Of a stretch of 64,000 nt of DNA, positions 15,172 to 35,541 are shown piece after piece (positions within the stretch are counted from its first letter, which is position 1; each line of letters begins with the position of its first letter). A program made the translations under genes and the position numbers. The stretch is from Psilocybe cubensis (taxonomy: Eukaryota), in NCBI GenBank assembly GCA_017499595.2, contig CM038998.1, positions 1-64,000 of the forward strand, read 5' to 3'. The notes under the pieces are model-generated. The model ran no database searches. It was not told where the DNA came from and saw nothing but the letters and a program-made list of their open reading frames with translations.

Positions 15172-15901
15172 TCTTTCCATTTAACTCACAGTTTAAACAA
15201 GTCGCTCGCACCTCGCTTCGCTCGGTGCTCGCTCCCCCCCTAACCCTAAACCTAAACCTAAACCCTAAACCCTAAACCCTAAGCCCTAACCTAACCCCAA
15301 CCCTAAGCTAACTAAGTCTAACCTTAGTAGGAAGTAAGGTAGGCGTGTGAACTTCCGAAAGGCATGTGATTGTGAAGGGCCGGATCTAATTTAGTACATG
15401 GGAAAAGTTACTTAGTACCTCGGGAAAAGTTCCTTAGTACCGTGGAAACATTTTTGATGGACCGGATCATGAACTGTCCAATTAAGATTCACAACAATCA
15501 ATCAATTGATTGTTAGGTAAGGACCCAGGTAAGCTATTTATACTCTTGACATGAGAATATTCCCATGTCACGGTTACTCGGAGCCACGTAACCAGAGTAT
15601 TTTATATCCATGTGATTCACATCACAGTCAATAACCCACGATGTCAAAGAACAAAAGTGTTGGATCCACTTTTGACAGGTTACCATGTGCCACATCGACC
15701 CGTGACACTCTGTTCATCAGAGATCTGTCTAACTTGACAATAAACATTGACAGATTTGTGATAGTCGGTAAGATACATGACAGCTGCGCAGCATCACTTC
15801 ACGCGCTGTCATCGGATGTTCCAGAACATTCCTTTTAAGAATAGCCACTGAAGAGTCTATAAAGACGAAAGGGCTGGCTGCTGATAACAATCAACAGCCC
15901 T

Positions 15902-16830: not shown

Positions 16831-16942
16831 CTGGCCTTCTTTCCATTTAACTCACAGTTTAAACAAGTCGCTCGCACCTCGCTTCGCTCGGTGCTCGCTC
16901 CCCCCCTAAACCCAACGACTTTGCTATTACCCAACAGCTACT

Positions 16943-19900
16943 ATGTCTTCCACTTACTCTGCTGCCTTCTCTCGTGCCATGTCCCCCACCCTGGACGCAC
17001 TCACCCAGGCTGTCGTCAACAACACAGTTTTTGGCGTCAACGACGAAGCTGGCCGCCACAACGCCCTCATCGACGAGTTGGCCACTGTCGTCATCAAGAA
17101 AATAGCTGAGTGCCGCTCCATTGACCAGATTGTAGACTGCGTCTTTTTTGACTATCGTGCTACCCTTAGGGAGTTTCTCCTCAACCTCGCATCGTGGTGC
17201 GATAAGAGGGAAACAGTCAAGGCTAGCCTCGAGCGCCTTGAACTTGCCGTTAGCGCAGGCAACACCCCCAATCGCCTTCGGGTAAAGGCTCCCGAGTTCC
17301 AACTTACGAAGGAATTCGCGGATGCCGGGTCAGCGGAAGCTCTTCGAGTTTCCTCTACGTTCTCCACCGCTCGTGATGTCTTCCAAAAGGCAATCAACGA
17401 CGGCGCCATTCAGGCGAAAAAGGACGAACTGGCCTTTTGGGATGATAAATGCGCACTCAATAACTGTTATGAAGCTGCTGCCCTCATCGTTAAGACAACT
17501 TACGATGATCGCAAATCCAGCTATAAGCTCCCCGTTTTCTCTACAGACAACAAGGGAGTTCGTCGAATAACAGATTGGGTAGTGTCACCGCAGAAGAAGG
17601 CTGAATGCAGCGCATTGCAAACCATTTTGCCAGCCATCTTCTCTCATATCAAACAGATTGTCAACTTGCGCCACCGCGCTTTGGCAATCAAGATTGAGAA
17701 AAAGCGGTCGACTGCGGCAACAGCCGATGTCGAGATGGCCGATGCGACCAAACCAGGTCCATCGATTCAATCCCTTATTGATAAGGGCTTGAATGCACGT
17801 CTCAAGAAGCTCAACCTTGGATCTGTGGGCAAGAAGGCAAGTTCTCGTAACCCTTCACCCATAATTCTGGATACTAATTACTATTCTAATTACCCAGACT
17901 TTGTCTGGCCAGAATTCGTCCAAGGCTCCTCAACCTCAGGCCAAGAAAGCTGGCCCTTCGAAATTCAAACCCTCGTCGACGCCTTCGCAGAAGAAGCCCC
18001 AAACCAAGGCTTCCAACAAGGTCGACAACAAGAAGAAAGGGAAGGGGAGAGCTCCCGTCAAGAACGATCCAAAGGGAAAGGGAAAGGCAAGAGCCTAGAC
18101 GCGCGGTCTAATGTAGTACCTTTTACGTCGGTAAGACCCGCCTTCCCCAACTCTATTCCTGACGATATACTCACCATGACTAAAACAGACGCAGTTTCTT
18201 TTGTACACTTACATACGCCGATCTCATTCTTGTTGGCTGGCCAGTATCGTAGTAGTGTACACTGTAGTCCTGGTGTGGTGGTCCCTGTAGATATAGCAAA
18301 TGATTTGTCACTCGGACTCAATTATATGTTTTTTACTCTGCCTTCTCAAAGTCTGATCATGCAAGCATGGAATGATTTTCAACGAAGAATAAGATGGCGT
18401 ATCTATTTTTTGTTTAAGGAAGGCATGAACAAACCTTTTGATCCAGATTACGGAGTAAGCTCAAAAAAGAAAGAGAAACCTCCAGTATTACCGCAATACA
18501 TGGAACTTGGCCTTTCGATGGGACGTCGGTACGTGCAACGCACGATCGCAAGTATCCCGGAAGAAGCCCTTACGGAGATGCGAAAGCACGCGTTCTCTCC
18601 TAAAAGGGACAAGATCCGTAAGTTTCTTATCGATAACAACTATGTTATTACGATGACAGATAAGAATCTTGGCCTCGCGGTGTCTGAACGCGACTGGATA
18701 TTAAGGAATGAGCTCAATCTTCTTGAAGATGAACGTAACTATGAAGAGTTAGAATTCGAAGTTGCGCAAGAAGTAATGAAGAGCAAAATGATCCAGATGC
18801 AAACTCTTGCACGTACCGTCGAAGATGAACATCTGTTTCTATTTGAACTTGGGTTGTCTCGATTCTTTCTATCGAATGTACCGGAAGACGGATCATCGTT
18901 CAAGTATCCTCAATTTCATGGTATACCTAAAATCCACAAAAAACCTACTGGATTTAGGCCCATAATTCCGTGTCACTCTGTAGTATTTAATCCTGCAGCC
19001 AAGTTTGTATCAAAAGAGCTTAAGCCGATTATTAAATCGACTCCTTCAATCATTCACGGAACGAAGGATCTCTTTACGAGATTAAGCCAATTGCGTATAG
19101 ACCCCAAACGACAATGGTATTTTGTCACCGGGGATGTAGTTGCTTTCTATCCCAATATTCCGTTGGACTTGTGCATCGAAATCGTTTGTAATATGTACGA
19201 GGAATGGTTACTCAACGCTTCGGAAGAAAACACTGCATTAGCCCATATTAATCCAAATTCGTTAGAGAATAACTTGGTTAAATTGGGCATCTTTAAACGT
19301 GCTATCGAGATTGGCAATACGCAATTGATAACACAACATGGGTCTAGATATTTTAGACAAAAAAATGGCCTCGCAATGGGCGTCGCGGATTCTCCGGACC
19401 TTGCTAACCTCTTTGGAGCCCATTTTGAAATAAAGTCAAAAATCTTAGACCACCCAAACGTGGCCTTCTATGGAAGGTACATCGACGATTGTTTCGCAAT
19501 TGTTTACGCCGAGTCCGAAGCACTTGCACTTAATCTTATTAAAGAAACAATAAAGTTCGATGGTTGTGTTATCGAATGGGCTGTTTCCTCGTCGGGATGT
19601 CAATTTCTCGATGCTTTCATATTCAAGGAGTCTGGAAAACTTCATTGGAAGCCATTTGTCAAGACAGGAAACAACCGAGAACGAGTTCCATGGGTATCAC
19701 ATCATCCTTTGGACGTCAAACGTGGCGTCTACATTGGAGAGTTATCCAGGTTAGCCGTGCTATGTAGTACCAAGGAAATCTACATCGGAGCAATTAGAGA
19801 CCTTAACGCTCTCTATTTGATGCGCGGTTATCCCGAAAACCTAGTCATGTCTTGGTGTAAGAAGAATATACAAGAACGTTGGGAAAAGCGATTCGCTTTA

Positions 19901-20473
19901 CGAGTCGCAGAGCACGACGAATCCATTCTTGTACTTAAAACCAGATTTGATCAGGTATGGAATTGGTTTTCAGCTGCTGAACTTGGAAAAACTGTTACCG
20001 AGTACTGGTCGGCATGGTATGAACATGCCGAGAAAGGTTTGTATAGTGCAGACTCGTCCAGACCCCTTATCAAACCAGATCCAAATTACGTTCACGACCT
20101 CGATGATGTTCGCCCGGAGCTGTTCACACAGATCCTCGTGGACGGAGAAACTGAGTTCGTACCGGATTTGAGGAAGATAGGACTACTCGGAAGTCGTTGG
20201 ATAGTATCGCGAAAACGCAATACTAATCTTTTCGACCTTGCAAATGTGTGGAAGAAAACAGTCTTTCGTAAACTGGATGAAGACATCGCTGAAAAAGGTG
20301 GTGTTGTTCCCGAAACTCAAAACGTTAATGAAACTTATCATTCTGCTTTAGTTGAAGCTGCTGAACAGATAAGTATCGAAAGTGATAACGAGATAATACT
20401 TCATAGACGTTCAATCTCACAAGAGAGGGAACATCCAGAATTCGGCAGAATATCCAAATCTTACAACCGATGA
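16943..20473 (+). CDS. PLE ORF1-RT polyprotein, 1176 aa
   Basis: Intact ORF with the YIDD RT core. Confidence 0.93.
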   Translation: MSSTYSAAFSRAMSPTLDALTQAVVNNTVFGVNDEAGRHNALIDELATVVIKKIAECRSIDQIVDCVFFDYRATLREFLLNLASWCDKRETVKASLERLELAVSAGNTPNRLRVKAPEFQLTKEFADAGSAEALRVSSTFSTARDVFQKAINDGAIQAKKDELAFWDDKCALNNCYEAAALIVKTTYDDRKSSYKLPVFSTDNKGVRRITDWVVSPQKKAECSALQTILPAIFSHIKQIVNLRHRALAIKIEKKRSTAATADVEMADATKPGPSIQSLIDKGLNARLKKLNLGSVGKKASSRNPSPIILDTNYYSNYPDFVWPEFVQGSSTSGQESWPFEIQTLVDAFAEEAPNQGFQQGRQQEEREGESSRQERSKGKGKGKSLDARSNVVPFTSVRPAFPNSIPDDILTMTKTDAVSFVHLHTPISFLLAGQYRSSVHCSPGVVVPVDIANDLSLGLNYMFFTLPSQSLIMQAWNDFQRRIRWRIYFLFKEGMNKPFDPDYGVSSKKKEKPPVLPQYMELGLSMGRRYVQRTIASIPEEALTEMRKHAFSPKRDKIRKFLIDNNYVITMTDKNLGLAVSERDWILRNELNLLEDERNYEELEFEVAQEVMKSKMIQMQTLARTVEDEHLFLFELGLSRFFLSNVPEDGSSFKYPQFHGIPKIHKKPTGFRPIIPCHSVVFNPAAKFVSKELKPIIKSTPSIIHGTKDLFTRLSQLRIDPKRQWYFVTGDVVAFYPNIPLDLCIEIVCNMYEEWLLNASEENTALAHINPNSLENNLVKLGIFKRAIEIGNTQLITQHGSRYFRQKNGLAMGVADSPDLANLFGAHFEIKSKILDHPNVAFYGRYIDDCFAIVYAESEALALNLIKETIKFDGCVIEWAVSSSGCQFLDAFIFKESGKLHWKPFVKTGNNRERVPWVSHHPLDVKRGVYIGELSRLAVLCSTKEIYIGAIRDLNALYLMRGYPENLVMSWCKKNIQERWEKRFALRVAEHDESILVLKTRFDQVWNWFSAAELGKTVTEYWSAWYEHAEKGLYSADSSRPLIKPDPNYVHDLDDVRPELFTQILVDGETEFVPDLRKIGLLGSRWIVSRKRNTNLFDLANVWKKTVFRKLDEDIAEKGGVVPETQNVNETYHSALVEAAEQISIESDNEIILHRRSISQEREHPEFGRISKSYNR

Positions 20474-21181
20474 AAAGAATACTAGCGCGTAAGGCGTAAA
20501 GCATTAGAAAAAAACCCTAACCGTAAGTATTCCTTGCTACAAAGTAACAAACATCTACTTACAAGCAACACATTGGATTAAATAGCTAAACCTAAACCTA
20601 AACCCTAAACCCTAAACCCTAAGCCCTAACCTAACCCCAACCCTAAGCTAACTAAGTCTAACCTTAGTAGGAAGTAAGGTAGGCGTGTGAACTTCCGAAA
20701 GGCATGTGATTGTGAAGGGCCGGATCTAATTTAGTACATGGGAAAAGTTACTTAGTACCTCGGGAAAAGTTCCTTAGTACCGTGGAAACATTTTTGATGG
20801 ACCGGATCATGAACTGTCCAATTAAGATTCACAACAATCAATCAATTGATTGTTAGGTAAGGACCCAGGTAAGCTATTTATACTCTTGACATGAGAATAT
20901 TCCCATGTCACGGTTACTCGGAGCCACGTAACCAGAGTATTTTATATCCATGTGATTCACATCACAGTCAATAACCCACGATGTCAAAGAACAAAAGTGT
21001 TGGATCCACTTTTGACAGGTTACCATGTGCCACATCGACCCGTGACACTCTGTTCATCAGAGATCTGTCTAACTTGACAATAAACATTGACAGATTTGTG
21101 ATAGTCGGTAAGATACATGACAGCTGCGCAGCATCACTTCACGCGCTGTCATCGGATGTTCCAGAACATTCCTTTTAAGAA

Positions 21182-21248
21182 TAGCCACTGAAGAGTCTAT
21201 AAAGACGAAAGGGCTGGCTGCTGATAACAATCAACAGCCCTCTGGCCT
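21182..21248 (+). ncRNA. Hammerhead ribozyme, intact
   Basis: Same core and stems. Confidence 0.88.
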
Positions 21249-21314
21249 TCTTTCCATTTAACTCACAGTTTAAACAAGTCGCTCGCACCTCGCTTCGCTC
21301 GGTGCTCGCTCCCC

Positions 21315-21405
21315 CCCTAAACCCTAAACCCTAAACCCTAAACCCTAAACCCTAAACCCTAAACCCTAAACCCTAAACCCTAACCCCTAAACCCTAAACC
21401 CTAAA
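21315..21405. repeat. Interstitial telomeric tract (CCCTAAA)~13
   Basis: Near-perfect heptamer run between copy 3 and a truncated solo pLTR. Confidence 0.95.
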
Positions 21406-21407
21406 AC

Positions 21408-22081
21408 GCTAACTAAGTCTAACCTTAGTAGGAAGTAAGGTAGGCGTGTGAACTTCCGAACGGCATGTGATTGTGAAGGGCCGGATCTAATTTAGTACAT
21501 GGGAAAAGTTACTTAGTACTTCGGGAAAAGTTCCTTAGTACCGTGGAAACATTTTTGATGGACCGGATCATGAACTGTCCAATTAAGATTCACAACAATC
21601 AATCATTCTATTGTTTGATTGTTAGGTAAGGACCCAGGTAAGTTATTTATACTCTAGACATGTGAATATTCCCATGTCGCGGTTACTCGGAGCCACGTAA
21701 CCAGAGTAATCTATATCCATGTGATTCACATCACAGTCAATAACCCACGATGTCAAAGAACAAAAGTGTTGGATCCACTTTTGACAGGTTACCATGTGCC
21801 ACATCGACCCGTGACACTCTGTTCATCAGAGACCTGTCTAACTTGACAATAAACATTGACAGATTTGTGATAGTCGGTAAGATACATGACAGCTGCGCAG
21901 CATCACTTCACGCGCTGTCATCGGATGTCTAGAACATTCCTTCTAAGAATAGCCACTGAAGAGTCTATAAAGACGAAAGGGCTGGTTGTTGGGATCCCCC
22001 AACAGCCCTCTGGCTACTTTCCATTTAACTCCCAGTTTAAACTAGTCGCTCGCACCTCGCTTCGCTCGGTGCTCGCTCCCA
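21408..22081 (+). mobile_element. Solo, 5'-truncated pLTR of the PLE
   Basis: pLTR sequence with no ORF, flanked by telomeric repeats. Confidence 0.88.
21950..22016 (+). ncRNA. Hammerhead ribozyme, intact (6-bp stem I UAGCCA/UGGCUA)
   Basis: Same core; the variant TGGCTA extends stem I. Confidence 0.9.
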
Positions 22082-22754
22082 CCCTAAACCCTAAACCCTA
22101 AACCCTAACCCTAAACCCTAAACCCTAAGCCCTAACCTAACCCCAACCCTAAGCTAACTAAGTCTAACCTTAGTAGGAAGTAAGGTAGGCGTGTGAACTT
22201 CCGAACGGCATGTGATTGTGAAGGGCCGGATCTAATTTAGTACATGGGAAAAGTTACTTAGTACTTCGGGAAAAGTTCCTTAGTACCGTGGAAACATTTT
22301 TGATGGACCGGATCATGAACTGTCCAATTAAGATTCACAACAATCAATCATTCTATTGTTTGATTGTTAGGTAAGGACCCAGGTAAGTTATTTATACTCT
22401 AGACATGTGAATATTCCCATGTCGCGGTTACTCGGAGCCACGTAACCAGAGTAATCTATATCCATGTGATTCACATCACAGTCAATAACCCACGATGTCA
22501 AAGAACAAAAGTGTTGGATCCACTTTTGACAGGTTACCATGTGCCACATCGACCCGTGACACTCTGTTCATCAGAGACCTGTCTAACTTGACAATAAACA
22601 TTGACAGATTTGTGATAGTCGGTAAGATACATGACAGCTGCGCAGCATCACTTCACGCGCTGTCATCGGATGTCTAGAACATTCCTTCTAAGAATAGCCA
22701 CTGAAGAGTCTATAAAGACGAAAGGGCTGGTTGTTGGGATCCCCCAACAGCCCT

Positions 22755-23683
22755 CAAGTACTCGTCCTCTCCCAAACTCCTGCCGCTTGTGCCTTCCCAA
22801 CTCATCCGGGAGCCCTTTCGTCACTGATCTTGCCCTTGACTCGGGGACGTTTCATCGACATGTTGGCTGCCTCACGGCAAGCGGGGCCCTTTTTCTTTCA
22901 CTCGCTCACGCCTTCTATGTTGGGTTACGGAGGTCATACAAACTCGTTTTAGTCTAGCTGCGGGGATATCCAGCTATGATGACTTTGTAATTCGAGGGCG
23001 CGCAGTTCTTCAATGGGTATGGACATCAGGTGAGAGTACACTGGGGGTTGTCAGGACCAGCTCTGCTGGATACGCTCCTGGCAAGTCGGTTGCAGCCGGC
23101 GACACTACCGAATTGCTGGGACGTCCTAAAGCTTGTGGGTACCGCCGACCGCTGGAAACAGCCTAGGCACCGGTGGCGACCGGGTATGGTAACAATCCCC
23201 AAGATTCAGCGAAAGCTGGAATGGATAATCAGCAGCGAATCCGTAACGGTCACGCCGACGGAAGCGTTCAACGACTAGGTGGTAGTGGGGTCTTCGGATC
23301 TTAAGATATAGTCTTGGGAGTGGGGAAACCCACATCTGGTATCTAAACCGCGCCTCGCTGCTTACGAGGACGGCCCGAAGTCCAGAACCGCTTAAAACGC
23401 GGGTGACCCGGCCTCCCCTTAGTAAAGGGAGTTAACACAAGGATGGACAAATAGTTCGTCGCCGGAAATGAACCTGTGGCTGTAATGGCTGATGTGGCGC
23501 CCCTTGGTAAAGGGCTTAAAGGGTATTAGCCTGCCATGTCCAATGGCATGAGAGTGTCCCTTGGTAAAGGACTTAATAGGCAATAGCCTGCTCTTTTGTC
23601 ATGAGCGGTATGTAGTGATCGTTTGCCTGTACGGTAGCGCCCATTGCTTGCACTGGTCCACGCCCGTAAAAAATCACGAGCCG
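22755..23683 (+). ncRNA. Group I intron copy 4
   Basis: Near-identical to 3773-4701 although the flanking pLTR and ORF1 are more diverged. Confidence 0.93.
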
Positions 23684-23794
23684 CTGGCTACTTTCCATTT
23701 AACTCCCAGTTTAAACTAGTCGCTCGCACCTCGCTTCGCTCGGTGCTCGCTCCCCCCCTAAACCCAACGACTTTGCTATTATCCATCAGCCACT

Positions 23795-26700
23795 ATGTCA
23801 TCTCAATACTCTGCTGCTTTCTCTCGTGCCATGTCCCCCACCCTGGACGCACTCACCCAGGCCGTCGTCAACAACACCGTTTTCGGCGTCAACGATGAAG
23901 CAGGCCGCCATAACGCTCTGATCGACGAGCTGGCCACTGTGGTCATCAAAAAAATAGCTGAGTGCCGCTCCGTTGACCAAGTCATAGACTGCGTCTTTTT
24001 TGACTATCGTGCTGCCCTTAGGGAGTTTCTCCTCAACCTCGCATCGTGGTGCGATAAGAGGGAAACAGTCAAGGCTAGCCTCGAGCGCCTTGAATCTGCC
24101 GTTAGCGCAGGCAACACGCCCAATCGCCTTAAGGTGAAGGCACCCGAGTTCCAACTTACGAAGGAATTCGCGGATGCCGGGTCAGCGGAGGCTCTTCGAG
24201 TCTCCACTACGTTCTCTACCGCTCGTGACGCCTTCCAAAAGGCAATTAACGACGGCGCCATTCAGGCGAAAAAGGACGAGCTGACTTTTTGGGATGATAA
24301 ATGCGCACTCAACTCTTGCTACGAAGCTGCTGCCCTCATCGTTAAGGCAACTTACGATGATCGCAAATCCAGCTACAAGCTCCCTGTTTTCTCTACAGAT
24401 AACAAGGGAGTTCGACGTATAGCAGAGTGGGTAGTGTCTCCGCAAAAGAAAGCCGAATGCAGTGCGCTGCAAACCATACTGCCGGCGATCTTTTCTCACA
24501 TCAAACAAATTGTCAACATGCGCCACCGCGCTTTGGCAATTAAGATTGAGAAAAAGCGGACGACTGCGGCAACAGCCGATGTCGAGATGGCCGACGCGAC
24601 CAAACCAGGTCCGTCGATTCAATCCCTTATTGATAAGGGCTTGAATGCACGTCTCAAGAAGCTCAACCTTGGATCTGTGGGCAAGAAGGCAAGTTTTCGT
24701 AACCCTTCACCCATAATTCTGGATACTAATTACTACTCTAATTACCCAGACTTTGTCTGGCCAGAATTCGTCCAAGGCTCCTCAACCTCAGGCCAAGAAA
24801 GCTGGCCCTTCGAAACCCAAGTCGTCGTCGACGCCTTCGCAACGCAAGCCTCAAACCAAGGCTTCCAACAAGGTCGACAACAAGAAGAAAGGGAAGGGGA
24901 GAGCTCCCGTCAAGAACGATCCAAAGGGAAAGGGAAAGGCAAGAGCCTAGATGCGCGGTCTAATGTAGTACCTTTTACGTCGGTGAGACCCGCCTTCCCC
25001 AACTCTATTCCTGACGATATACTCACCATGACTAAAACAGACGCAGTTTCTTTCGTACACTTACATACTCCAATATCATTCTTGTTGGCTGGCCAGTATC
25101 GTAGTAGTGTACATTGTAGTCCTGGTGTTTCTGTCCCTGTTGATGTAGCAAACGATCTCTCTCTCGGACTTAATTATATGTTTTTCACTCTGCCTTCTAA
25201 AAGTCTGATCATGCAAGCATGGAATGATTTCCAACGAAGAATAAGATGGCGTATCTATTTTTTGTTTAAGGAAGGCATGAATAAACCTTTTGATCCAGAT
25301 TATGGAGTAAGCTCAAAAAAGAAAGAGAAACCTCCTGTATTACCGCAATATATGGAACTTGGCCTTTCGATGGGACGTCGGTACGTGCAACGCACGATCG
25401 CAAGTATCCCGGAAGAAGCCCTTACGGAGATGCGAAAGCACGCGTTCTCTCCTAAAAGGGACAAGATCCGTAAGTTTCTTATCGATAACAACTATGTTAT
25501 TACGATGACAGATAAGAATCTTGGCCTCGCGGTGTCTGAACGCGACTGGATATTAAGGAATGAGCTCAATCTTCTTGAAGATGAACGTAATTACGAAGAG
25601 TTAGAATTCGAAGTTGCGCAAGAAGTTATGAAGAGCAAAATGATTCAGATGCAAACGCTCGCACGTACTGTCGAAGATGAACATCTGTTTCTATTTGAAC
25701 TTGGGTTGTCTCGATTCTTTCTATCGAATGTACCGGAAGACGGATCATCGTTCAAGTATCCTCAATTTCATGGTATACCTAAAATCCACAAGAAACCTAC
25801 TGGATTTAGGCCCATAATTCCGTGTCACTCTGTAGTATTTAATCCTGCAGCCAAGTTTGTATCAAAAGAGCTTAAGCCGATTATTAAATCGACTCCTTCA
25901 ATCATACACGGAACGAAGGATCTCTTTACGAGATTAAGCCAATTGCGTATAGACTCCAAAAGACAATGGTATTTTGTCACTGGAGATGTAGTTGCTTTCT
26001 ATCCCAATATTCCGTTGGACTTGTGCATCGAAATCGTTTGTAGTATGTACGAGGAATGGTTACTCAACGCTTCGGAAGAAAACACTGCATTAGCCCATAT
26101 TAATCCAAATTCGTTAGAGAATAACTTGGTTAAATTGGGCATCTTTAAACGTGCTATCGAGATTGGCAATACGCAATTGATAACACAACATGGGTCTAGA
26201 TATTTTAGACAAAAAAATGGCCTCGCAATGGGCGTCGCGGATTCTCCGGACCTTGCTAACCTCTTTGGAGCCCATTTTGAAATAAAGTCAAAAATCTTAG
26301 ACCACCCAAACGTGGCCTTCTATGGAAGGTACATCGACGATTGTTTCGCAATTGTTTACGCCGAGTCCGAAGCACTTGCACTTAATCTTATTAAAGAAAC
26401 AATAAAGTTCGATGGTTGTGTTATCGAATGGGCTGTTTCCTCGTCGGGATGTCAATTTCTCGATGCTTTCATATTCAAGGAGTCTGGAAAACTTCATTGG
26501 AAGCCTTTTGTCAAGACAGGAAACAACCGAGAACGAGTTCCATGGGTATCACATCATCCTTTGGACGTCAAACGTGGCGTCTACATTGGAGAGTTATCCA
26601 GGTTAGCCGTGCTATGTAGTACCAAGGAAATCTACATCGGAGCAATTAGAGACCTTAACGCTCTCTATTTGATGCGCGGTTATCCCGAAAACCTAGTCAT

Positions 26701-27325
26701 ATCTTGGTGTAAGAAGAATATACAAGAACGTTGGGAAAAGCGATTCGCTTTACGAGTCGCAGAGCACGACGAATCCATTCTTGTACTTAAAACCAGATTT
26801 GATCAGGTATGGAATTGGTTTTCAGCTGCTGAACTTGGAAAAACTGTTACCGAGTACTGGTCGGCATGGTATGAACATGCCGAGAAAGGTTTGTATAGTG
26901 CAGACTCGTCCAGACCCCTTATCAAACCAGATCCAAATTACGTTCACGACCTCGATGATGTTCGCCCGGAGCTGTTCACACAGATCCTCGTGGACGGAGA
27001 AACTGAGTTCGTACCGGATTTGAGGAAGATAGGACTACTCGGAAGTCGTTGGATAGTATCGCGAAAACGCAATACTAATCTTTTCGACCTTGCAAATGTG
27101 TGGAAGAAAACAGTCTTTCGTAAACTGGATGAAGACATCGCTGAAAAAGGTGGTGTTGTTCCCGAAACTCAAAACGTTAATGAAACTTATCATTCTGCTT
27201 TAGTTGAAGCTGCTGAGCAGATAAGTATCGAAAGTGATAACGAGATAATACTTCATAGACGTTCAATCTCACAAGAGAGGGAACATCCAGAATTTGGCAG
27301 AATATCCAAATCTTACAACCGATGA
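23795..27325 (+). CDS. PLE ORF1-RT polyprotein, 1176 aa
   Basis: Intact ORF with the YIDD RT core. Confidence 0.93.
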   Translation: MSSQYSAAFSRAMSPTLDALTQAVVNNTVFGVNDEAGRHNALIDELATVVIKKIAECRSVDQVIDCVFFDYRAALREFLLNLASWCDKRETVKASLERLESAVSAGNTPNRLKVKAPEFQLTKEFADAGSAEALRVSTTFSTARDAFQKAINDGAIQAKKDELTFWDDKCALNSCYEAAALIVKATYDDRKSSYKLPVFSTDNKGVRRIAEWVVSPQKKAECSALQTILPAIFSHIKQIVNMRHRALAIKIEKKRTTAATADVEMADATKPGPSIQSLIDKGLNARLKKLNLGSVGKKASFRNPSPIILDTNYYSNYPDFVWPEFVQGSSTSGQESWPFETQVVVDAFATQASNQGFQQGRQQEEREGESSRQERSKGKGKGKSLDARSNVVPFTSVRPAFPNSIPDDILTMTKTDAVSFVHLHTPISFLLAGQYRSSVHCSPGVSVPVDVANDLSLGLNYMFFTLPSKSLIMQAWNDFQRRIRWRIYFLFKEGMNKPFDPDYGVSSKKKEKPPVLPQYMELGLSMGRRYVQRTIASIPEEALTEMRKHAFSPKRDKIRKFLIDNNYVITMTDKNLGLAVSERDWILRNELNLLEDERNYEELEFEVAQEVMKSKMIQMQTLARTVEDEHLFLFELGLSRFFLSNVPEDGSSFKYPQFHGIPKIHKKPTGFRPIIPCHSVVFNPAAKFVSKELKPIIKSTPSIIHGTKDLFTRLSQLRIDSKRQWYFVTGDVVAFYPNIPLDLCIEIVCSMYEEWLLNASEENTALAHINPNSLENNLVKLGIFKRAIEIGNTQLITQHGSRYFRQKNGLAMGVADSPDLANLFGAHFEIKSKILDHPNVAFYGRYIDDCFAIVYAESEALALNLIKETIKFDGCVIEWAVSSSGCQFLDAFIFKESGKLHWKPFVKTGNNRERVPWVSHHPLDVKRGVYIGELSRLAVLCSTKEIYIGAIRDLNALYLMRGYPENLVISWCKKNIQERWEKRFALRVAEHDESILVLKTRFDQVWNWFSAAELGKTVTEYWSAWYEHAEKGLYSADSSRPLIKPDPNYVHDLDDVRPELFTQILVDGETEFVPDLRKIGLLGSRWIVSRKRNTNLFDLANVWKKTVFRKLDEDIAEKGGVVPETQNVNETYHSALVEAAEQISIESDNEIILHRRSISQEREHPEFGRISKSYNR

Positions 27326-28040
27326 AAAGAATACTAGCGCTTAAGGCGTAAAGCATTAGAAAAAAACCCTAACCGTAAGTATTCCTTGCTATAAAGTAAC
27401 AAACATCTACTTACAAGCAACACATTGGATTGAATAGCTAAACCTAAACCTAAACCCTAAACCCTAAACCCTAAACCCTAACCTAACCCCAACCCTAAGC
27501 TAACTAAGTCTAACCTTAGTAGGAAGTAAGGTAGGCGTGTGAACTTCCGAACGGCATGTGATTGTGAAGGGCCGGATCTAATTTAGTACATGGGAAAAGT
27601 TACTTAGTACTTCGGGAAAAGTTCCTTAGTACCGTGGAAACATTTTTGATGGACCGGATCATGAACTGTCCAATTAAGATTCACAACAATCAATCATTCT
27701 ATTGTTTGATTGTTAGGTAAGGACCCAGGTAAGTTATTTATACTCTAGACATGTGAATATTCCCATGTCGCGGTTACTCGGAGCCACGTAACCAGAGTAA
27801 TCTATATCCATGTGATTCACATCACAGTCAATAACCCACGATGTCAAAGAACAAAAGTGTTGGATCCACTTTTGACAGGTTACCATGTGCCACATCGACC
27901 CGTGACACTCTGTTCATCAGAGACCTGTCTAACTTGACAATAAACATTGACAGATTTGTGATAGTCGGTAAGATACATGACAGCTGCGCAGCATCACTTC
28001 ACGCGCTGTCATCGGATGTCTAGAACATTCCTTCTAAGAA

Positions 28041-28107
28041 TAGCCACTGAAGAGTCTATAAAGACGAAAGGGCTGGTTGTTGGGATCCCCCAACAGCCCT
28101 CTGGCTA
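28041..28107 (+). ncRNA. Hammerhead ribozyme, intact
   Basis: Same core, 6-bp stem I. Confidence 0.9.
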
Positions 28108-28786
28108 CTTTCCATTTAACTCCCAGTTTAAACTAGTCGCTCGCACCTCGCTTCGCTCGGTGCTCGCTCCCACCCTAAACCCTAAACCCTAAACCCTAAC
28201 CCTAAACCCTAAACCCTAAGCCCTAACCTAACCCCAACCCTAAGCTAACTAAGTCTAACCTTAGTAGGAAGTAAGGTAGGCGTGTGAACTTCCGAACGGC
28301 ATGTGATTGTGAAGGGCCGGATCTAATTTAGTACATGGGAAAAGTTACTTAGTACTTCGGGAAAAGTTCCTTAGTACCGTGGAAACATTTTTGATGGACC
28401 AGATCATGAACTGTCCAATTAAGATTCACAACAATCAATCAGTCTATTGTTTGATTGTTAGGTAAGGACCCAGGTAAGCTATTTATACTCTAGACATGTG
28501 AATATTCCCATGTCGCGGTTACTCGGAGCCACGTAACCAGAGTTTTCTATATCCATGTGATTCACATCACAGTCAATAACCCACGATGTCAAAGAACAAA
28601 AGTGTTGGATCCACTTTTGACAGGTTACCATATGCCACATTGACCCGTGACACTCTGTTCATCAGAGATCTGTCTAACTTGACAATAAACATTGACAGAT
28701 TTGTGATAGTCGGTAAGATACATGACAGCTGCGCAGCATCACTTCACGCGCTGTCATCGGATGTTCCAGAACATTCCTTCTAAGAA

Positions 28787-28853
28787 TAGCCACTGAAGAG
28801 TCTATAAAGACGAAAGGGCTGGCTGCTGATAACAATCAACAGCCCTCTGGCTT
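28787..28853 (+). ncRNA. Hammerhead ribozyme, intact, upstream of the ORF
   Basis: Same core and stems. Confidence 0.88.
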
Positions 28854-28958
28854 CTTTCCATTTTAACTCCCAGTTTAAACTAGTCGCTCGCACCTCGCTT
28901 CGCTCGGTGCTCGCTCCCCCCCTAAACCCAACGACTTTGCTATCACCCATCAGCCACT

Positions 28959-31900
28959 ATGTCATCCCAATACTCTGCTGCTTTCTCTCGTGCCATGTCC
29001 CCCACCCTGGACGCACTCACCCAGGCCGTCGTCAACAACACCGTCTTCGGCGTCAACGATGAAGCAGGCCGCCATAACGCTCTGATCGACGAGCTGGCCA
29101 CTGTGGTCATCAAAAAAATAGCTGAGTGCCGCTCCGTTGACCAAGTCATAGACTGCGTCTTTTTTGACTATCGTGCTGCCCTCAGGGAGTTTCTTCTCAA
29201 CCTCGCATCGTGGTGCGATAAGAGAGAAACAGTCAAGGCTAGCCTCGAGCGCCTTGAATCTGCCGTTAGCGCAGGCAACACGCCCAATCGCCTTAAGGTG
29301 AAGGCGCCCGAGTTCCAACTCACGAAGGAATTCGCGGATGCCGGGTCAGCGGAGGCTCTTCGAGTCTCCACTACGTTCTCTACCGCTCGTGACGTCTTCC
29401 AAAAGGCGATTAACGACGGCGCCATTCAGGCGAAAAAGGATGAGCTGGCCTTTTGGGATGATAAATGCGCACTCAACTCTTGCTACGAAGCTGCTGCCCT
29501 CATCGTTAAGGCAACTTACGATGATCGCAAATCCAGCTACAAGCTCCCTGTTTTCTCTACAGACAACAAGGGAGTCCGACGTATAGCAGAGTGGGTAGTG
29601 TCTCCGCAAAAGAAAGCCGAATGCAGTGCGCTGCAAACTATACTGCCGGCGATCTTTTCTCATATCAAACAAATTGTCAACATGCGCCACCGCGCCTTGG
29701 CAATTAAGATTGAGAAAAAGCGGACGACTGCGGCAACAGCCGATGTCGAGATGGCCGACGCGACCAAACCAGGTCCGTCGATTCAATCCCTTATTGATAA
29801 GGGCTTGAATGCACGTCTCAAAAAGCTCAACCTTGGATCTGTGGGCAAGAAGGCAAGTTTTCGTAACCCTTCACCCATAATTCTGGACACTAATTATTAC
29901 TCTAATTACCCAGACTTTGTCTGGCCAGAATTCGTCCAAGGCTCCTCAACCTCAGGCCAGGAAAGCTGGCCCTTCGAAACCCAAGTCGTCGTCGATGCCT
30001 TCGCAGAGGAAGCCCCAAACCAAGGTTTCCAACAAGGTCGACAACAAGAAGAAAGGGAAGGGGAGAGCTCCCGTCAAGAACAACGATCCAAAGGGAAAGG
30101 GAAAGGCAAGAGCCTAGACGCGCGGTCTACTGTAGCATCATTTACGTCGGTGAGACCCGCCTTCCCCAACTCTATTCCTGACGATATACTCACCATGACT
30201 AAAACAGACGCGGTTTCTTTCGTACACTTACATACTCCAATTTCATTCTTGTTGGCTGGCCAGTATCGTAGTAGTGTACATTGTAGTCCTGGTGTTTCTG
30301 TCCCTGTTGATGTAGCAAACGATCTCTCTCTCGGACTAAATTATATGTTTTTCACACTGCCTTCTAAAAGTCTGATCATGCAAGCATGGAATGATTTTCA
30401 ACGAAGAATAAGATGGCGTATCTATTTTTTGTTTAAGGAAGGCATGAATAAACCTTTTGATCCAGATTATGGAGTAAGTTCTAAGAAAAAAGAAAAACCT
30501 CCTGTATTACCGCAATATATGGAACTTGGCCTTTCGATGGGACGTCGGTACGTGCAACGCACGATCGCAAGTATCCCGGAAGAAGCCCTCACGGAGATGC
30601 GAAAGCACGCGTTCTCTCCTAAAAGGGACAAGATCCGTAAGTTTCTTATCGATAACAACTATGTTATTACGATGACAGATAAGAATCTTGGCCTCGCGGT
30701 GTCTGAACGCGACTGGATAATAAGGAATGAGCTCAATCTTCTTGAAGATGAACGCAACTACGAAGAGTTAGAATTCGAAGTTGCTCAAGAAGTTATGAAG
30801 AGCAAAATGATTCAGATGCAAACGCTCGCACGTACTGTCGAAGATGAACATCTGTTTCTATTTGAACTTGGGTTGTCTCGATTTTTTCTATCAAATGTAC
30901 CGGAAGACGGATCATCGTTCAAGTATCCTCAATTTCATGGTATACCTAAAATCCATAAAAAACCTACTGGATTTAGGCCCATAATTCCGTGTCACTCTGT
31001 AGTATTTAATCCTGCAGCCAAGTTCGTATCAAAAGAGCTTAAGCCGAGTATTAAATCGACTCCTTCAATCATACACGGAACGAAGGATCTCTTTACGAGA
31101 TTAAGCCAATTGCGTATAGACTCCAATAGACAATGGTATTTTGTCACTGGAGATGTAGTTGCTTTCTATCCCAATATTCCGTTGGACTCGTGCATCGAAA
31201 TCGTTTGTAGTATGTACGAGGAATGGTTACTCAACGCTTCGGAAGAAAACACTGCATTAGCCCATATTAATCCAAATTCGTTAGAAAATAACTTGGTTAA
31301 ATTGGGCATCTTTAAACGTGCTATCGAGATTGGCAATACGCAATTAATAACACAACATGGGTCTAGATATTTTAGACAAAAAAATGGCCTCGCAATGGGC
31401 GTCGCGGATTCTCCGGACCTTGCTAACCTCTTTGGAGCCCATTTTGAAATAAAGTCAAAAATCTTGGACCACCCAAACGTGGCCTTCTATGGAAGGTACA
31501 TCGACGATTGTTTCGCAATTGTTTACGCCGAGTCCGAAGCACTTGCACTTAATCTTATTAAAGAAACAATAAAGTTCGATGGTTGTGTTATCGAATGGGC
31601 TGTTTCCTCGTCGGGATGTCAATTTCTCGATGCTTTCATATTCAAGGAGTCTGGAAAACTTCATTGGAAGCCTTTTGTCAAGACAGGAAACAACCGAGAA
31701 CGAGTTCCATGGGTATCACATCATCCTTTGGACGTCAAACGTGGCGTCTACATTGGAGAGTTATCCAGGTTAGCCGTGCTATGTAGTACCAAGGAAATCT
31801 ACATCGGAGCAATTAGAGACCTTAACGCTCTCTATTTGATGCGCGGTTATCCCGAAAACCTAGTCATATCTTGGTGTAAGAAGAATATACAAGAACGTTG

Positions 31901-32492
31901 GGAAAAGCGATTCGCTTTACGAGTCGCAGAGCACGACGAATCCATTCTTGTACTTAAAACCAGATTTGATCAGGTATGGAATTGGTTTTCAGCTGCTGAA
32001 CTTGGAAAAACTGTTACCGAGTACTGGTCGGCATGGTATGAACATGCCGAGAAAGGTTTGTATAGTGCAGACTCGTCCAGACCCCTTATCAAACCAGATC
32101 CAAATTACGTTCACGACCTCGATGATGTTCGCCCGGAGCTGTTCACACAGATCCTCGTGGACGGAGAAACTGAGTTCGTACCGGATTTGAGGAAGATAGG
32201 ACTACTCGGAAGTCGTTGGATAGTATCGCGAAAACGCAATACTAATCTTTTCGACCTTGCAAATGTGTGGAAGAAAACAGTCTTTCGTAAACTGGATGAA
32301 GACATCGCTGAAAAAGGTGGTGTTGTTCCCGAAACTCAAAACGTTAATGAAACTTATCATTCTGCTTTAGTTGAAGCTGCTGAGCAGATAAGTATCGAAA
32401 GTGATAACGAGATAATACTTCATAGACGTTCAATCTCACAAGAGAGGGAACATCCAGAATTCGGCAGAATATCCAAATCTTACAACCGATGA
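28959..32492 (+). CDS. PLE ORF1-RT polyprotein, 1177 aa
   Basis: Intact ORF with a 3-nt insertion near 30080. Confidence 0.93.
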   Translation: MSSQYSAAFSRAMSPTLDALTQAVVNNTVFGVNDEAGRHNALIDELATVVIKKIAECRSVDQVIDCVFFDYRAALREFLLNLASWCDKRETVKASLERLESAVSAGNTPNRLKVKAPEFQLTKEFADAGSAEALRVSTTFSTARDVFQKAINDGAIQAKKDELAFWDDKCALNSCYEAAALIVKATYDDRKSSYKLPVFSTDNKGVRRIAEWVVSPQKKAECSALQTILPAIFSHIKQIVNMRHRALAIKIEKKRTTAATADVEMADATKPGPSIQSLIDKGLNARLKKLNLGSVGKKASFRNPSPIILDTNYYSNYPDFVWPEFVQGSSTSGQESWPFETQVVVDAFAEEAPNQGFQQGRQQEEREGESSRQEQRSKGKGKGKSLDARSTVASFTSVRPAFPNSIPDDILTMTKTDAVSFVHLHTPISFLLAGQYRSSVHCSPGVSVPVDVANDLSLGLNYMFFTLPSKSLIMQAWNDFQRRIRWRIYFLFKEGMNKPFDPDYGVSSKKKEKPPVLPQYMELGLSMGRRYVQRTIASIPEEALTEMRKHAFSPKRDKIRKFLIDNNYVITMTDKNLGLAVSERDWIIRNELNLLEDERNYEELEFEVAQEVMKSKMIQMQTLARTVEDEHLFLFELGLSRFFLSNVPEDGSSFKYPQFHGIPKIHKKPTGFRPIIPCHSVVFNPAAKFVSKELKPSIKSTPSIIHGTKDLFTRLSQLRIDSNRQWYFVTGDVVAFYPNIPLDSCIEIVCSMYEEWLLNASEENTALAHINPNSLENNLVKLGIFKRAIEIGNTQLITQHGSRYFRQKNGLAMGVADSPDLANLFGAHFEIKSKILDHPNVAFYGRYIDDCFAIVYAESEALALNLIKETIKFDGCVIEWAVSSSGCQFLDAFIFKESGKLHWKPFVKTGNNRERVPWVSHHPLDVKRGVYIGELSRLAVLCSTKEIYIGAIRDLNALYLMRGYPENLVISWCKKNIQERWEKRFALRVAEHDESILVLKTRFDQVWNWFSAAELGKTVTEYWSAWYEHAEKGLYSADSSRPLIKPDPNYVHDLDDVRPELFTQILVDGETEFVPDLRKIGLLGSRWIVSRKRNTNLFDLANVWKKTVFRKLDEDIAEKGGVVPETQNVNETYHSALVEAAEQISIESDNEIILHRRSISQEREHPEFGRISKSYNR

Positions 32493-33199
32493 AAAGAATA
32501 CTAGCGCTTAAGGCGTAAAGCATTAGAAAAAAACCCTAACCGTAAGTATTCCTTGCTATAAAGTAACAAACATCTACTTACAAGCAACACATTGGATTGA
32601 ATAGCTAAACCTAAACCTAAACCCTAAACCCTAAACCCTAAGCCCTAACCTAACCCCAACCCTAAGCTAACTAAGTCTAACCTTAGTAGGAAGTAAGGTA
32701 GGCGTGTGAACTTCCGAACGGCATGTGATTGTGAAGGGCCGGATCTAATTTAGTACATGGGAAAAGTTACTTAGTACTTCGGGAAAAGTTCCTTAGTACC
32801 GTGGAAACATTTTTGATGGACCGGATCATGAACTGTCCAATTAAGATTCACAACAATCAATCAATTGATTGTTAGGTAAGGACCCAGGTAAGCTATTTAT
32901 ACTCTTGACATGTGAATATTCCCATGTCGCGGTTACTCGGAGCCACGTAACCAGAGTAATCTATATCCATGTGATTCACATCACAGTCAATAACCCACGA
33001 TGTCAAAGAACAAAAGTGTTGGATCCACTTTTGACAGGTTACCATGTGCCACATTGACCCGTGACACTCTGTTCATCAGAGACCTGTCTAACTTGACAAT
33101 AAACATTGACAGATTTGTGATAGTCGGTAAGATACATGACAGCTGCACAGCATCACTTCACGCGCTGTCATCGGATGTCTAGAACATTCCTTCTAAGAA

Positions 33200-33266
33200 T
33201 AGCCACTGAAGAGTCTATAAAGACGAAAGGGCTGGTTGTTGGTACCCCCCAACAGCCCTCTGGCCT
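33200..33266 (+). ncRNA. Hammerhead ribozyme, intact (third stem III loop variant)
   Basis: Same core; stem III extension GUUGGUACCCCCCAAC. Confidence 0.88.
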
Positions 33267-33332
33267 TCTTTCCATTTAACTCACAGTTTAAACAAGTCGC
33301 TCGCACCTCGCTTCGCTCGGTGCTCGCTCCCC

Positions 33333-33367
33333 CCCTAAACCCTAATAACCCCTAAACCCTAAACCCT
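33333..33367. repeat. Short interstitial telomeric tract capping a truncated copy
   Basis: CCCTAAA units joined directly to mid-RT sequence ATGTACGAGG. Confidence 0.9.
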
Positions 33368-35495
33368 ATGTACGAGGAATGGTTACTCAACGCTTCGGAA
33401 GAAAACACTGCATTAGCCCATATTAATCCAAATTCGTTAGAGAATAACTTGGTTAAATTGGGCATCTTTAAACGTGCTATCGAGATTGGCAATACGCAAT
33501 TGATAACACAACATGGGTCTAGATATTTTAGACAAAAAAATGGCCTCGCAATGGGCGTCGCGGATTCTCCGGACCTTGCTAACCTCTTTGGAGCCCATTT
33601 TGAAATAAAGTCAAAAATCTTAGACCACCCAAACGTGGCCTTCTATGGAAGGTACATCGACGATTGTTTCGCAATTGTTTACGCCGAGTCCGAAGCACTT
33701 GCACTTAATCTTATTAAAGAAACAATAAAGTTCGATGGTTGTGTTATCGAATGGGCTGTTTCCTCGTCGGGATGTCAATTTCTCGATGCTTTCATATTCA
33801 AGGAGTCTGGAAAACTTCATTGGAAGCCATTTGTCAAGACAGGAAACAACCGAGAACGAGTTCCATGGGTATCACATCATCCTTTGGACGTCAAACGTGG
33901 CGTCTACATTGGAGAGTTATCCAGGTTAGCCGTACTATGTAGTACCAAGGAAATCTACATCGGAGCAATTAGAGACCTTAACGCTCTCTATTTGATGCGC
34001 GGTTATCCCGAAAACCTAGTCATGTCTTGGTGTAAGAAGAATATACAAGAACGTTGGGAAAAGCGATTCGCTTTACGAGTCGCAGAGCACGACGAATCCA
34101 TTCTTGTACTTAAAACCAGATTTGATCAGGTATGGAATTGGTTTTCAGCTGCTGAACTTGGAAAGACTGTTACCGAGTACTGGTCGGCATGGTATGAACA
34201 TGCCGAGAAAGGTCTGTATAGTGCAGACTCGTCCAGACCCCTTATCAAACCAGATCCAAATTACGTTCACGACCTCGATGATGTTCGCCCGGAGCTGTTC
34301 ACACAGATCCTCGTGGACGGAGAAACTGAGTTCGTACCGGATTTGAGGAAGATAGGACTACTCGGAAGTCGTTGGATAGTATCGCGAAAGCGCAATACTA
34401 ATCTTTTCGACCTTGCAAATGTGTGGAAGAAAACAGTCTTTCGTAAACTGGATGAAAACATCGCTGAAAAAGGTGGTGTTGTTCCCGAAACTCAAAACGT
34501 TAATGAAACTTATCATTCTGCTCTAGTTGAAGCTGCTGAACAGATAAGTATCGAAAGTGATAACGAGATAATACTTCATAGACGTTCAACCTCACAAGAG
34601 AGGGAACATCCAGAATTCGGCAGAATATCCAAATCTTACAACCGATGAAAAGAATACTAGCGCGTAAGGCGTAAAGCATTAGAAAAAAAAACCCTAACCG
34701 TAAGTATTCCTTGCTATAAAGTAACAAACATCTACTTACAAGCAACACTTTGGATTAAATAGCTAAACCTAAACCCTAAACCCTAAACCCTAAACCCTAA
34801 CCTAACCCCAACCCTAAGCTAACTAAGTCTAACCTTAGTAGGAAGTAAGGTAGGCGTGTGAACTTCCGAACGGCATGTGATTGTGAAGGGCCGGATCTAA
34901 TTTAGTACATGGGAAAAGTTACTTAGTACTTCGGGAAAAGTTCCTTAGTACCGTGGAAACATTTTTGATGGACCGGATCATGAACTGTCCAATTAAGATT
35001 CACAACAATCAATCATTCTATTGTTTGATTGTTAGGTAAGGACCCAGGTAAGCTATTTATACTCTAGACATGTGAATATTCCCATGTCGCGGTTACTCGG
35101 AGCCACGTAACCAGAGTAATCTATATCCATGTGATTCACATCACAGTCAATAACCCACGATGTCAAAGAACAAAAGTGTTGGATCCACTTTTGACAGGTT
35201 ACCATGTGCCACATCGACCCGTGGCACTCTGTTCATCAGAGACCTGTCTAACTTGACAATAAACATTGACAGATTTGTGATAGTCGGTAAGATACATGAC
35301 AGCTGCGCAGCATCACTTCACGCGCTGTCATCGGATGTCTAGAACATTCCTTCTAAGAATAGCCACTGAAGAGTCTATAAAGACGAAAGGGCTGGTTGTT
35401 GGGATCCCCCAACAGCCCTCTGGCTTCTTTCCATTTTAACTCCCAGTTTAAACTAGTCGCTCGCACCTCGCTTCGCTCGGTGCTCGCTCCCCCCC
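33368..35495 (+). mobile_element. 5'-truncated PLE copy, the most proximal (RT fragment 33368-34648 plus pLTR)
   Basis: Starts inside the RT downstream of the GDVVAFYP motif. Confidence 0.92.
35360..35426 (+). ncRNA. Hammerhead ribozyme, intact
   Basis: Same core and stems. Confidence 0.88.
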
Positions 35496-35541
35496 TAAAC
35501 CCTAAACCCTAAACCCTAAACCCTAAACCCTAAACCCTAAA
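35493..35541. repeat. Interstitial telomeric tract (CCCTAAA)7 at the array/subtelomere junction
   Basis: Perfect heptamers followed by non-element DNA. Confidence 0.93.

Follow-up and report, generated by a model that had tools for sequence, protein, structure and literature searches.

Along one chromosome end of the fungus Psilocybe cubensis, the terminal repeats of a telomere-associated retroelement come in two forms, one interrupted by an insert of 929 nucleotides (nt) and one uninterrupted, and the form found goes with what lies downstream of the repeat. What the insert is, how it came to be there and why it appears on one side of the element are the questions that we address here, for positions 1 to 64,000 of the forward strand of contig CM038998.1 (assembly GCA_017499595.2), a stretch of 64 kb hereafter called the window. 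The host is a Penelope-like element (PLE), and the repeats in question are its pseudo-long terminal repeats (pLTRs). We are nearly certain that the insert is a group I intron lodged in the predicted hammerhead ribozyme of a Coprina-type element. The explanation that we prefer as a whole, in which a group I passenger was gained through an RNA route and owes its one-sided distribution to the way in which the element is copied, we regard as probable, with considerable room for doubt.

The distribution of the insert was established by a blastn census of the whole window, in which the pLTR of the fifth element (copy 5) served as query. This census found 13 pLTRs, eight joined to telomere repeats and five leading into an open reading frame (ORF) of 1176-1177 aa. 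The eight telomere-joined copies stop around pLTR base 685 and continue into CCCTAAA-type repeats, which after the copy at 32667-33342 extend for merely ~26 nt before a 5'-truncated ORF begins. The motif just upstream of the insertion site is kept in all 13, of which nine run on and four enter the insert. All four are ORF-leading (starts 3179, 9231, 15308 and 22154), the fifth ORF-leading pLTR (28245-28960) being uninterrupted, and their inserts are each exactly 929 nt long (3773-4701, 9825-10753, 15902-16830 and 22755-23683), with only two variable columns among the four. The insert is found in none of the eight telomere-joined pLTRs, and Fisher's exact test on 4/5 versus 0/8 gives p = 0.007 for copies that are not independent. 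Blastn and downstream context confirm on both counts a preliminary description of this DNA, which had also claimed for copy 5 an exact exon-exon junction (28846/28847) in front of an intact ORF. That junction reads T28846/C28847, one shared base (C) making its position ambiguous by 1 nt. Imprecise junctions, which the same description had held up as contrary evidence, are not what we found: the junction is exact in the window and also in the raw reads of an independent DNA run, where the same skip of 929 nt (3772 to 4702) occurs.

Judged at the level of sequence, the insert is an all-ribozyme group I intron without an endonuclease gene. All four copies match Rfam RF00028 over model positions 1-253, with 73.0, 73.0, 70.9 and 70.9 bits (E ~1e-16) against a curated cut-off of 50 bits. 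The insert has the ends CA..CG, not GT..AG, and in the first copy, whose coordinates are used here, its terminal base is G4701. Group I chemistry requires a 5' exon ending in T and an intron ending in G; since one register alone among the ambiguous ones has both, the junctions are fixed at 3772/3773 and 4701/4702. The predicted guide sequence (4060-4069) lies directly 5' of helix P2 and pairs with 3765-3774, the last eight exon bases and first two intron bases, in a P1 of 10 contiguous pairs with a T3772.G4062 wobble at the 5' splice site; a run of at least eight pairs anywhere in the 353 nt arose in 61 of 2000 shuffles. The other helices, read from the Rfam match and all on the plus strand, are as follows.

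P2: 4070-4098
P2.1: 4103-4118
P3: 4122-4127/4299-4304
P4: 4132-4137/4247-4252
P5: 4141-4144/4241-4244
P6: 4253-4284
P7: 4291-4295/4327-4331
P8: 4307-4318
P9: 4338-4351

Over five homologues, the core helices P2.1, P3, P4, P5, P7 and P9 pair in 92.9% of 140 cells, versus 25-53% for slid partners. Eight pairs have changed on both sides, a count matched in 0 of 500 shuffles and drawn from five sequences only, with the structure read from one of them. P7 is invariant in all five, including what would be the G-C pair of the guanosine-binding site. The intron, presumably IC1-like by its resemblance to that subgroup, continues 3' of P9 for ~350 nt with repeated hairpins. No homing endonuclease gene was found in it, the longest overlapping ORF being one of 69 aa on the opposite strand, and no lariat-capping or other ribozyme family was found in the insert by Rfam searches at E up to 10, besides RF00028 and three weak unrelated matches. 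The preliminary description had taken the insert for an intron; that it is of group I type and lies within a hammerhead had been missed. The intron's last 13 nt resemble the end of the 5' exon, which at first sight suggests a target-site duplication, a candidate dropped because a similar 3'-terminal motif recurs in three introns of related elements (L029, L076a and L076b, see below) that are sited elsewhere. Separately, the 3' extension (4430-4610) contains three copies of a ~30-nt hairpin-forming unit, and related units are present in the L076a intron.

The core bases of a type I hammerhead with a long helix III are present in all 13 pLTRs, and the variants of helix III preserve pairing. RNAfold returns the three-helix structure as the minimum-energy fold of one variant, four other variants folding otherwise. 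Hammerheads of such build have been described in the pLTRs of telomere-associated fungal PLEs, and cleavage of one from Serpula has been measured (Cervera and De la Pena, in the part of PMC4209133 drawn on here). In copy 5 the cut is predicted at C28847/T28848, and the empty intron site is T28846/C28847. By the standard numbering of hammerheads, the intron would fall between U16.1 and C17. On the evidence of the base sequence, the window intron sits 1 nt before the predicted scissile bond, and it thereby splits the hammerhead core; the 5' exon bound by its guide sequence is the 3' strand of helix III.

Some further features of this fold deserve mention in their own right. At least four versions of helix III (window 3742-3771 and its counterparts) occur: the window has two main ones and a further one in pLTR 12, and the reads of the independent run add another. 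All keep the base of the helix constant, with an outer part altered on both strands. The helix II loop reads on DNA as a TATA box (28803-28808 in copy 5, at the same place in all 13 pLTRs) and lies ~40 nt upstream of both the intron site and the hammerhead cut; the 28 relatives introduced below, which have a hammerhead motif upstream of the ORF, show an A/T-only loop here, with TATA in ~17 of them by eye. The hammerhead may thus double as the core promoter of the element. A hairpin just before the pLTR's terminal telomere unit (window 4740-4775) is kept in distant relatives.

The left end of the window is the chromosome end itself, where a terminal telomere tract is followed by a retroelement array of ~35.5 kb made up of seven head-to-tail units, every one on the plus strand, with an internal telomere-like tract (tel60) preceding each 3' pLTR. 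The eight telomere-joined pLTRs of the census are the 3' pLTRs and the solo pLTR in this list.

1..185, plus strand: telomere tract (ACCCTAA)n; Tandem Repeats Finder gives 26 copies with 96% matches
216..3117, plus strand: element 0, the youngest; 5'-truncated, telomere-capped ORF 216-2264 and intron-less 3' pLTR 2433-3117
3179..3772, plus strand: element 1, upstream part of the 5' pLTR, ending with the 5' two-thirds of the hammerhead (helix I 5' strand, core, helix II and helix III; final 5'-exon base T3772)
3773..4701, plus strand: element 1, first copy of the group I intron; 929 nt, matching all of Rfam RF00028 (model positions 1-253) with 73.0 bits and E 1.3e-16
4702..4813, plus strand: element 1, rest of the pLTR and short leader to the ATG, with hammerhead C17, helix I 3' strand, terminal hairpin, one telomere-repeat unit and the leader
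4814..8344, plus strand: element 1, ORF of 1176 aa; reverse transcriptase (RT) of Coprina/Penelope-like type
8457..9195, plus strand: element 1, 3' part; tel60 tract 8457-8517 and intron-less 3' pLTR 8519-9195, hammerhead uninterrupted
9231..15246, plus strand: element 2; 5' pLTR 9231-9824, intron 9825-10753 (70.9 bits), leader 10754-10865, ORF 10866-14396, tel60 14509-14569, intron-less 3' pLTR 14571-15246
15308..21324, plus strand: element 3; 5' pLTR 15308-15901, intron 15902-16830 (73.0 bits), leader 16831-16942, ORF 16943-20473, tel60 20586-20646, intron-less 3' pLTR 20648-21324
21409..22091, plus strand: solo pLTR, intron-less, flanked on both sides by telomere repeats
22154..28182, plus strand: element 4, second host lineage; 5' pLTR 22154-22754, intron 22755-23683 (70.9 bits), leader 23684-23794, ORF 23795-27325, tel60 27438-27498, intron-less 3' pLTR 27500-28182
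28245..28958, plus strand: element 5 (copy 5), 5' pLTR and leader without intron; intact hammerhead ~28788-28852
28959..33342, plus strand: element 5 continued; ORF 28959-32492 (1177 aa), tel60 32605-32665, intron-less 3' pLTR 32667-33342
33368..35541, plus strand: element 6, the oldest; 5'-truncated ORF 33368-34648 and intron-less 3' pLTR 34819-35502, followed by (CCCTAAA)7 and unique DNA

The ORF protein is 98-99% identical to Psilocybe cubensis proteins and has relatives in the hundreds; in an alignment of 24 sequences the DKN motif (T573-D574-K575-N576) and the RT motifs are invariant. The window's own protein gave no Pfam family match, hence no endonuclease domain was detected in it either; two relatives (P0062 and P0114) match Pfam RVT_1, and PDB sequence searches gave no relevant match. 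Each 3' pLTR ends in a CCCTAAA-type unit ~83 nt past the hammerhead cut. Terminal location, orientation, pLTRs, hammerhead and telomere-unit 3' end all fit a Coprina/Athena-type endonuclease-less PLE as the putative host, by comparison with the features of that type given in the parts of PMC6431247, PMC8557442 and PMC13159263 used here. The telomere unit is the 7-mer CCCTAAA in the window and in two related metagenomic loci (L029 and L048) and the 6-mer CCCTAA in a third (L076), and the 3' ends of the elements match the unit of their host.

Whether copy 5 lost the intron or never had it can be approached through the sequence differences among the elements. Elements 1 and 4 differ at 185 of 5084 bases (3.64%) of pLTRs, leader, ORF and 3' untranslated region (UTR), and their introns at 1 of 929, versus 33.8 expected (Poisson P = 7e-14); in the flanks, lineage-specific differences reappear at a distance of 10 nt on the upstream and 6 nt on the downstream side of the intron. 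These two lineages have in common the intron and almost nothing else. Copy 5 had been presented in the preliminary description as an intron-loss allele; it is no allele of the copies with the intron and belongs to a different sub-lineage, with an ORF 4.3-4.5% from those of elements 1-3 and 1.7% from that of element 4. In the raw reads of the independent DNA run, the mean depth is 1394 over the pLTR, 103 over the intron and 362 over the leader and ORF start. The ratio of intron to ORF-start depth in this independent strain is 0.28, and from the depth ratios the intron would be in ~28% of ORF-leading copies (at a similarity of at least 85%) and in ~7% of pLTRs; the low depth of intron reads also disfavours a near-identical intron in the many-copy ribosomal DNA (rDNA). 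Runs under two other organism labels yield contigs with the intron, with few differences and at low depth, and a third label yields one piece of 151 bases. Older units of the array lie further inward, and the oldest full unit (element 5) is empty, the four younger ones being occupied. The empty state is the common one, both in the independent strain and in 25 of the 28 relatives.

Taken together, the near-identity of the introns, the sharp return of flank differences, the read depth and the array order argue for a recent and exact gain, or mobility, which we hold to be very likely. There is strong support for viewing the intron as an optional, recently mobile passenger, apparently gained at the exact site by at least one of the two host lineages, and copy 5 is best read as an empty site rather than a product of loss. 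Of the two origins that the preliminary description had offered for the junction of copy 5, an ancestral empty site would accordingly be the better fit, and reverse transcription of spliced RNA the poorer one.

Related elements place the intron in a wider setting. When metagenome contigs were scanned with the RT alignment, 80 loci were recovered, on contigs that may be chimeric, as those of repeated elements can be. The ORF N terminus is included in 47 of these loci, and upstream of it 28 of the 47 have the hammerhead 5' motif. The distance from motif to ORF start is 102-193 nt in 25 of the 28, too short to admit an intron, and 1245-2003 nt in the other three (L029, L048 and L076). These three are also the only ones among the 80 loci with sequence like the window intron, and have a protein identity of 31-46%. 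Two group I matches in L076 exceed the Rfam cut-off (72.8 and 76.5 bits), and L029 and L048 each match the full model without reaching it (34.2 bits, E 1e-5, and 31.6 bits, E 6e-5). The intron sites, counted from the hammerhead cut, are as follows.

Window: 1 nt before the cut
L029: 4 nt after the cut, set against the empty relative L024
L076a: 14 nt after the cut, set against L076's own 3' pLTR
L048: roughly 68 nt after the cut, boundaries approximate
L076b: second L076 intron, downstream of an ATG, boundaries tentative

The L076a intron is not at the hammerhead cut itself, where it had at first been placed; comparison of the two pLTRs of L076 shows it to lie 14 nt further on. The T...G rule is obeyed at the intron boundaries of the window, L029 and L076a, for L076a in the one register that also places T before the intron, and the 9-bp P1 of the L029 intron is a different one, matched to the site of that intron. 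Guides that vary from site to site are known from mobile group I introns, and the differences in site among the relatives' introns fit transposition rather than vertical descent at one site. The polarity seen in the window recurs in both relatives with a readable 3' pLTR end: of the two pLTRs of L076 only the 5' one contains the intron, and in L048 the upstream unit ends in a 3' pLTR that passes into CCCTAAA repeats with no interruption.

These loci offer additional observations. The second L076 intron (8272-9252, tentative boundaries; the 76.5-bit match) follows an ATG at 8169, has an 8-bp P1 at T8271 and ends at its 3' side like the first; with it removed, 34 upstream codons would join the RT ORF in the same frame, for 1193 aa open in all, and an ATG in its last 10 nt could serve unspliced RNA. 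L048 (640-1870) and L029 (444-1514) are closely related, with pLTRs 94% alike, and have related group I sequences that are not in the same part of the leader. The one in L029 follows the hammerhead cut by 4 nt, and the one in L048 comes behind the terminal hairpin. This difference fits transposition of the intron within the leader, or else a rearrangement in L048.

Why the intron keeps to the 5' side may lie in how the element is copied. The preliminary description had argued that the asymmetry needs a particular route with template switching, and the pattern of pLTR variants lends this some support, short of proof. In elements 1-4 the 5' and 3' pLTRs are concordant upstream of the intron site; element 3 has a private variant common to its two pLTRs alone, and element 4 has just one difference between its 5' and 3' pLTRs, which is downstream of the site. 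The solo pLTR (21409-22091) equals the 3' pLTR of element 4 at all variable columns. The telomere-like tract found before 3' pLTRs is also present before 5' pLTRs, whole or cut at varying points, and the unit ends in one telomere-repeat unit, where 5' pLTRs resume with the short leader. Concordance of the pLTRs, recurrence of tel60, the solo pLTR and the unit end all fit a partial-tandem origin. Such an origin has been proposed for PLEs in general.

A route of this kind could work as follows. Element RNA would begin at the 5' end with a single leader, intron included, and finish at the 3' end with a complete pLTR. Complementary DNA would prime on the telomere overhang from the 3' pLTR, run to the RNA 5' end and then switch template into a 3' pLTR, which would rebuild the upstream part of the new 5' pLTR, copying coming to a halt in the telomere-like tract that precedes the 3' pLTR. 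Because of this template switch, the content of the 5' leader, intron included, would be inherited on the 5' side only. The 3' pLTR would be inherited separately and have to stay whole as the priming end; an intron in it would split the hammerhead and terminal fold beside the priming repeats, and a copy so altered would fail to spread. As to its gain, the excised intron might reverse-splice into element RNA at a site matching its guide, and the element's own RT might then write the invaded RNA into DNA at the telomere. The target in the 5' copy could be single-stranded, if transcripts start after the helix III 5' strand, and that in the 3' pLTR would be locked in helix III or cut. We judge each of these two parts, the RNA route of gain and the copying route behind the asymmetry, to be about evenly balanced between being right and wrong. 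A broader proposal, which seems to us possible and on balance doubtful, is that Coprina 5' leaders form a second nuclear niche of group I introns, outside rDNA, in which they spread by reverse splicing and a telomerase-like RT and take part in a two-ribozyme switch. In such a switch, helix III of read-through RNA would hide the 5' splice site and favour intron retention, and splicing would rebuild a self-cleaving hammerhead, setting genomic RNA apart from mRNA.

A number of observations weigh against parts of this interpretation. The hammerhead model matches the empty copies end to end and yet below threshold (Rfam, 29.1 bits against a cut-off of 56.3, E 0.023). For the intron, P10 is weak, the P1 loop is unusually long (~285 nt), and the P1 of L076a is weaker than that of L029, with mismatches. 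The copies counted in the window are not independent, and because elements 1-3 are nearly identical (differences of at most 0.3%), only two insert-bearing host lineages are represented there. Short-read depths do not tie the intron to its downstream context, so that intron-bearing telomere-joined pLTRs are possible elsewhere in the genome. Conversion at DNA level with very short tracts could mimic reverse splicing. Finally, the two pLTRs of element 5 are discordant, its 3' pLTR (32667-33342) being of a different variant family from its 5' pLTR (28245-28846), which is a mosaic of two such families, and the two pLTRs of L076 are merely 83% alike. Neither case fits regular re-copying, unless there was a template switch to another RNA or, for the metagenomic locus, a chimeric contig; a mosaic such as that of element 5 would be expected if the RT switched between RNAs of different elements.

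The same facts can be arranged differently. The intron might be ancestral and have been lost repeatedly through reverse transcription of spliced RNA, with gene conversion within the array accounting for its near-identity. The empty junction is indeed exact, as splicing would leave it, homologous introns in relatives of 31-46% protein identity suggest an old association, and PLE reverse transcriptases are described in the parts of PMC2377424 and PMC8557442 used here as copying spliced as well as unspliced RNAs. However, conversion would have to homogenise exactly 929 nt and halt within 6-10 nt on each side, between flanks 3.6% apart, and the homologous introns of relatives are at different sites, with 25 of 28 relatives empty, which makes this account improbable in our view. 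We give no more credence to the idea that the group I sequence is a domesticated leader module, kept where it works in defining or protecting the RNA 5' end or in controlling the hammerhead. It would explain why group I sequences lie between hammerhead and ORF body in four lineages (window, L029, L048 and L076), why no examinable 3' pLTR has one and why the window insert splits the hammerhead core, and the TATA-like loop ~40 nt upstream could, by eye, start transcripts near or inside the intron 5' end. Yet most members of the family have no group I sequence, boundaries obey splicing rules with a guide that matches each site, no lariat-capping match was found (E up to 10), and the position ranges between -1 and ~+68 nt, counted from the hammerhead cut. 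This variation in position makes the nesting of intron in hammerhead probably incidental.

The asymmetry might also call for no mechanism at all, if one or two insertions fell by chance into 5' pLTRs and were then copied with whole units, for example through break-induced replication or unequal exchange. The near-identity of the tandem units 1-3 and the small number of effective independent observations in the window would both suit this account. It has more trouble with a polarity that is the same in two diverged window lineages and in L076 and L048, with inter-unit telomere tracts that vary in length as expected for separate additions, and with the private variant that the two pLTRs of element 3 share, and we think it quite unlikely. 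An ordinary spliceosomal intron retained by the element, as in the 5' UTR of Penelope, would have precedents, PLEs being known for retained spliceosomal introns in pLTR or 5' UTR; we reject it, and leave it hardly any probability, because of the CA..CG ends and the full-length group I match above the Rfam cut-off.

Set beside known systems, the window intron resembles nuclear group I introns of rDNA (IC1/IE, Tetrahymena LSU, myxomycete) in its RF00028 core, T.G wobble of P1 and terminal G, in having no endonuclease gene and in its optional presence among copies and strains, and it shares with some of them a long P9-side 3' extension with direct repeats (PMC3679873, in the part drawn on here). 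Unlike them, it occupies the leader and pLTR of a telomeric retrotransposon, for which transcription by RNA polymerase II is presumed, and its P1 loop spans ~285 nt. Nuclear group I introns are stated to be confined to rDNA so far in the extracts of two reviews that we draw on (PMC9548176 from 2022 and PMC3679873 from 2013). The introns of Penelope (Drosophila virilis) and Chlamys-3 (Chlamydomonas) are comparable in their retention through retrotransposition and in their place in pLTR or 5' UTR near the hammerhead; in the portion of PMC4209133 concerned, the end of the Penelope intron maps to the 5' end of hammerhead helix I, and both spliced and unspliced RNAs are reported for PLE introns in portions of PMC2377424 and PMC8557442. 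Those introns are spliceosomal, unlike that of the window, which is of group I with its own guide, optional and marked by signs of recent transfer between lineages. With Coprina and Athena, the window element has in common head-to-tail arrays at chromosome ends, pLTRs and the DKN and RT motifs, and in the relevant part of PMC6431247 the 3' end of these elements is the reverse complement of telomere repeats just after the hammerhead fold. Full-text literature searches, with subscription journals largely outside their reach, found no report of a group I intron in any described Coprina/Athena member or retroelement, and a hammerhead ribozyme as the home of a group I intron has not been reported before.

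Two other systems invite comparison. Twin-ribozyme introns of Didymium and Naegleria likewise have a ribozyme nested in a ribozyme, such that processing of one can affect the other, in a comparison made from general background together with part of PMC3679873. In them, both ribozymes are group-I-derived and in rDNA, whereas here a group I intron splits a hammerhead and there is no lariat-capping match. With mobile group II introns we propose an analogy, that of a self-splicing ribozyme spreading through RNA and a reverse transcriptase; group II introns bring their own RT and reverse-splice into DNA, whereas here the RT would be that of the host retroelement, the target RNA, and the chemistry and fold those of group I. 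Spread of group I introns by reverse splicing is said, in the extract of PMC3679873 that we use, to lack evidence for the steps of reverse transcription and integration. The window retrotransposon would supply the intron with a reverse transcriptase and an entry into the genome, and the base-exact signature of recent transfer makes this old question testable in a culturable fungus. The intron adds a second ribozyme class to PLEs, and its distribution bears on how these elements rebuild their pseudo-LTRs.

Beyond the retroelement array, the window contains two further repeats, a 309-bp tandem duplication at 42524-43138 and a 32-bp unit with a GC-rich palindrome that forms two arrays, at 50892-50970 and 55493-55569.

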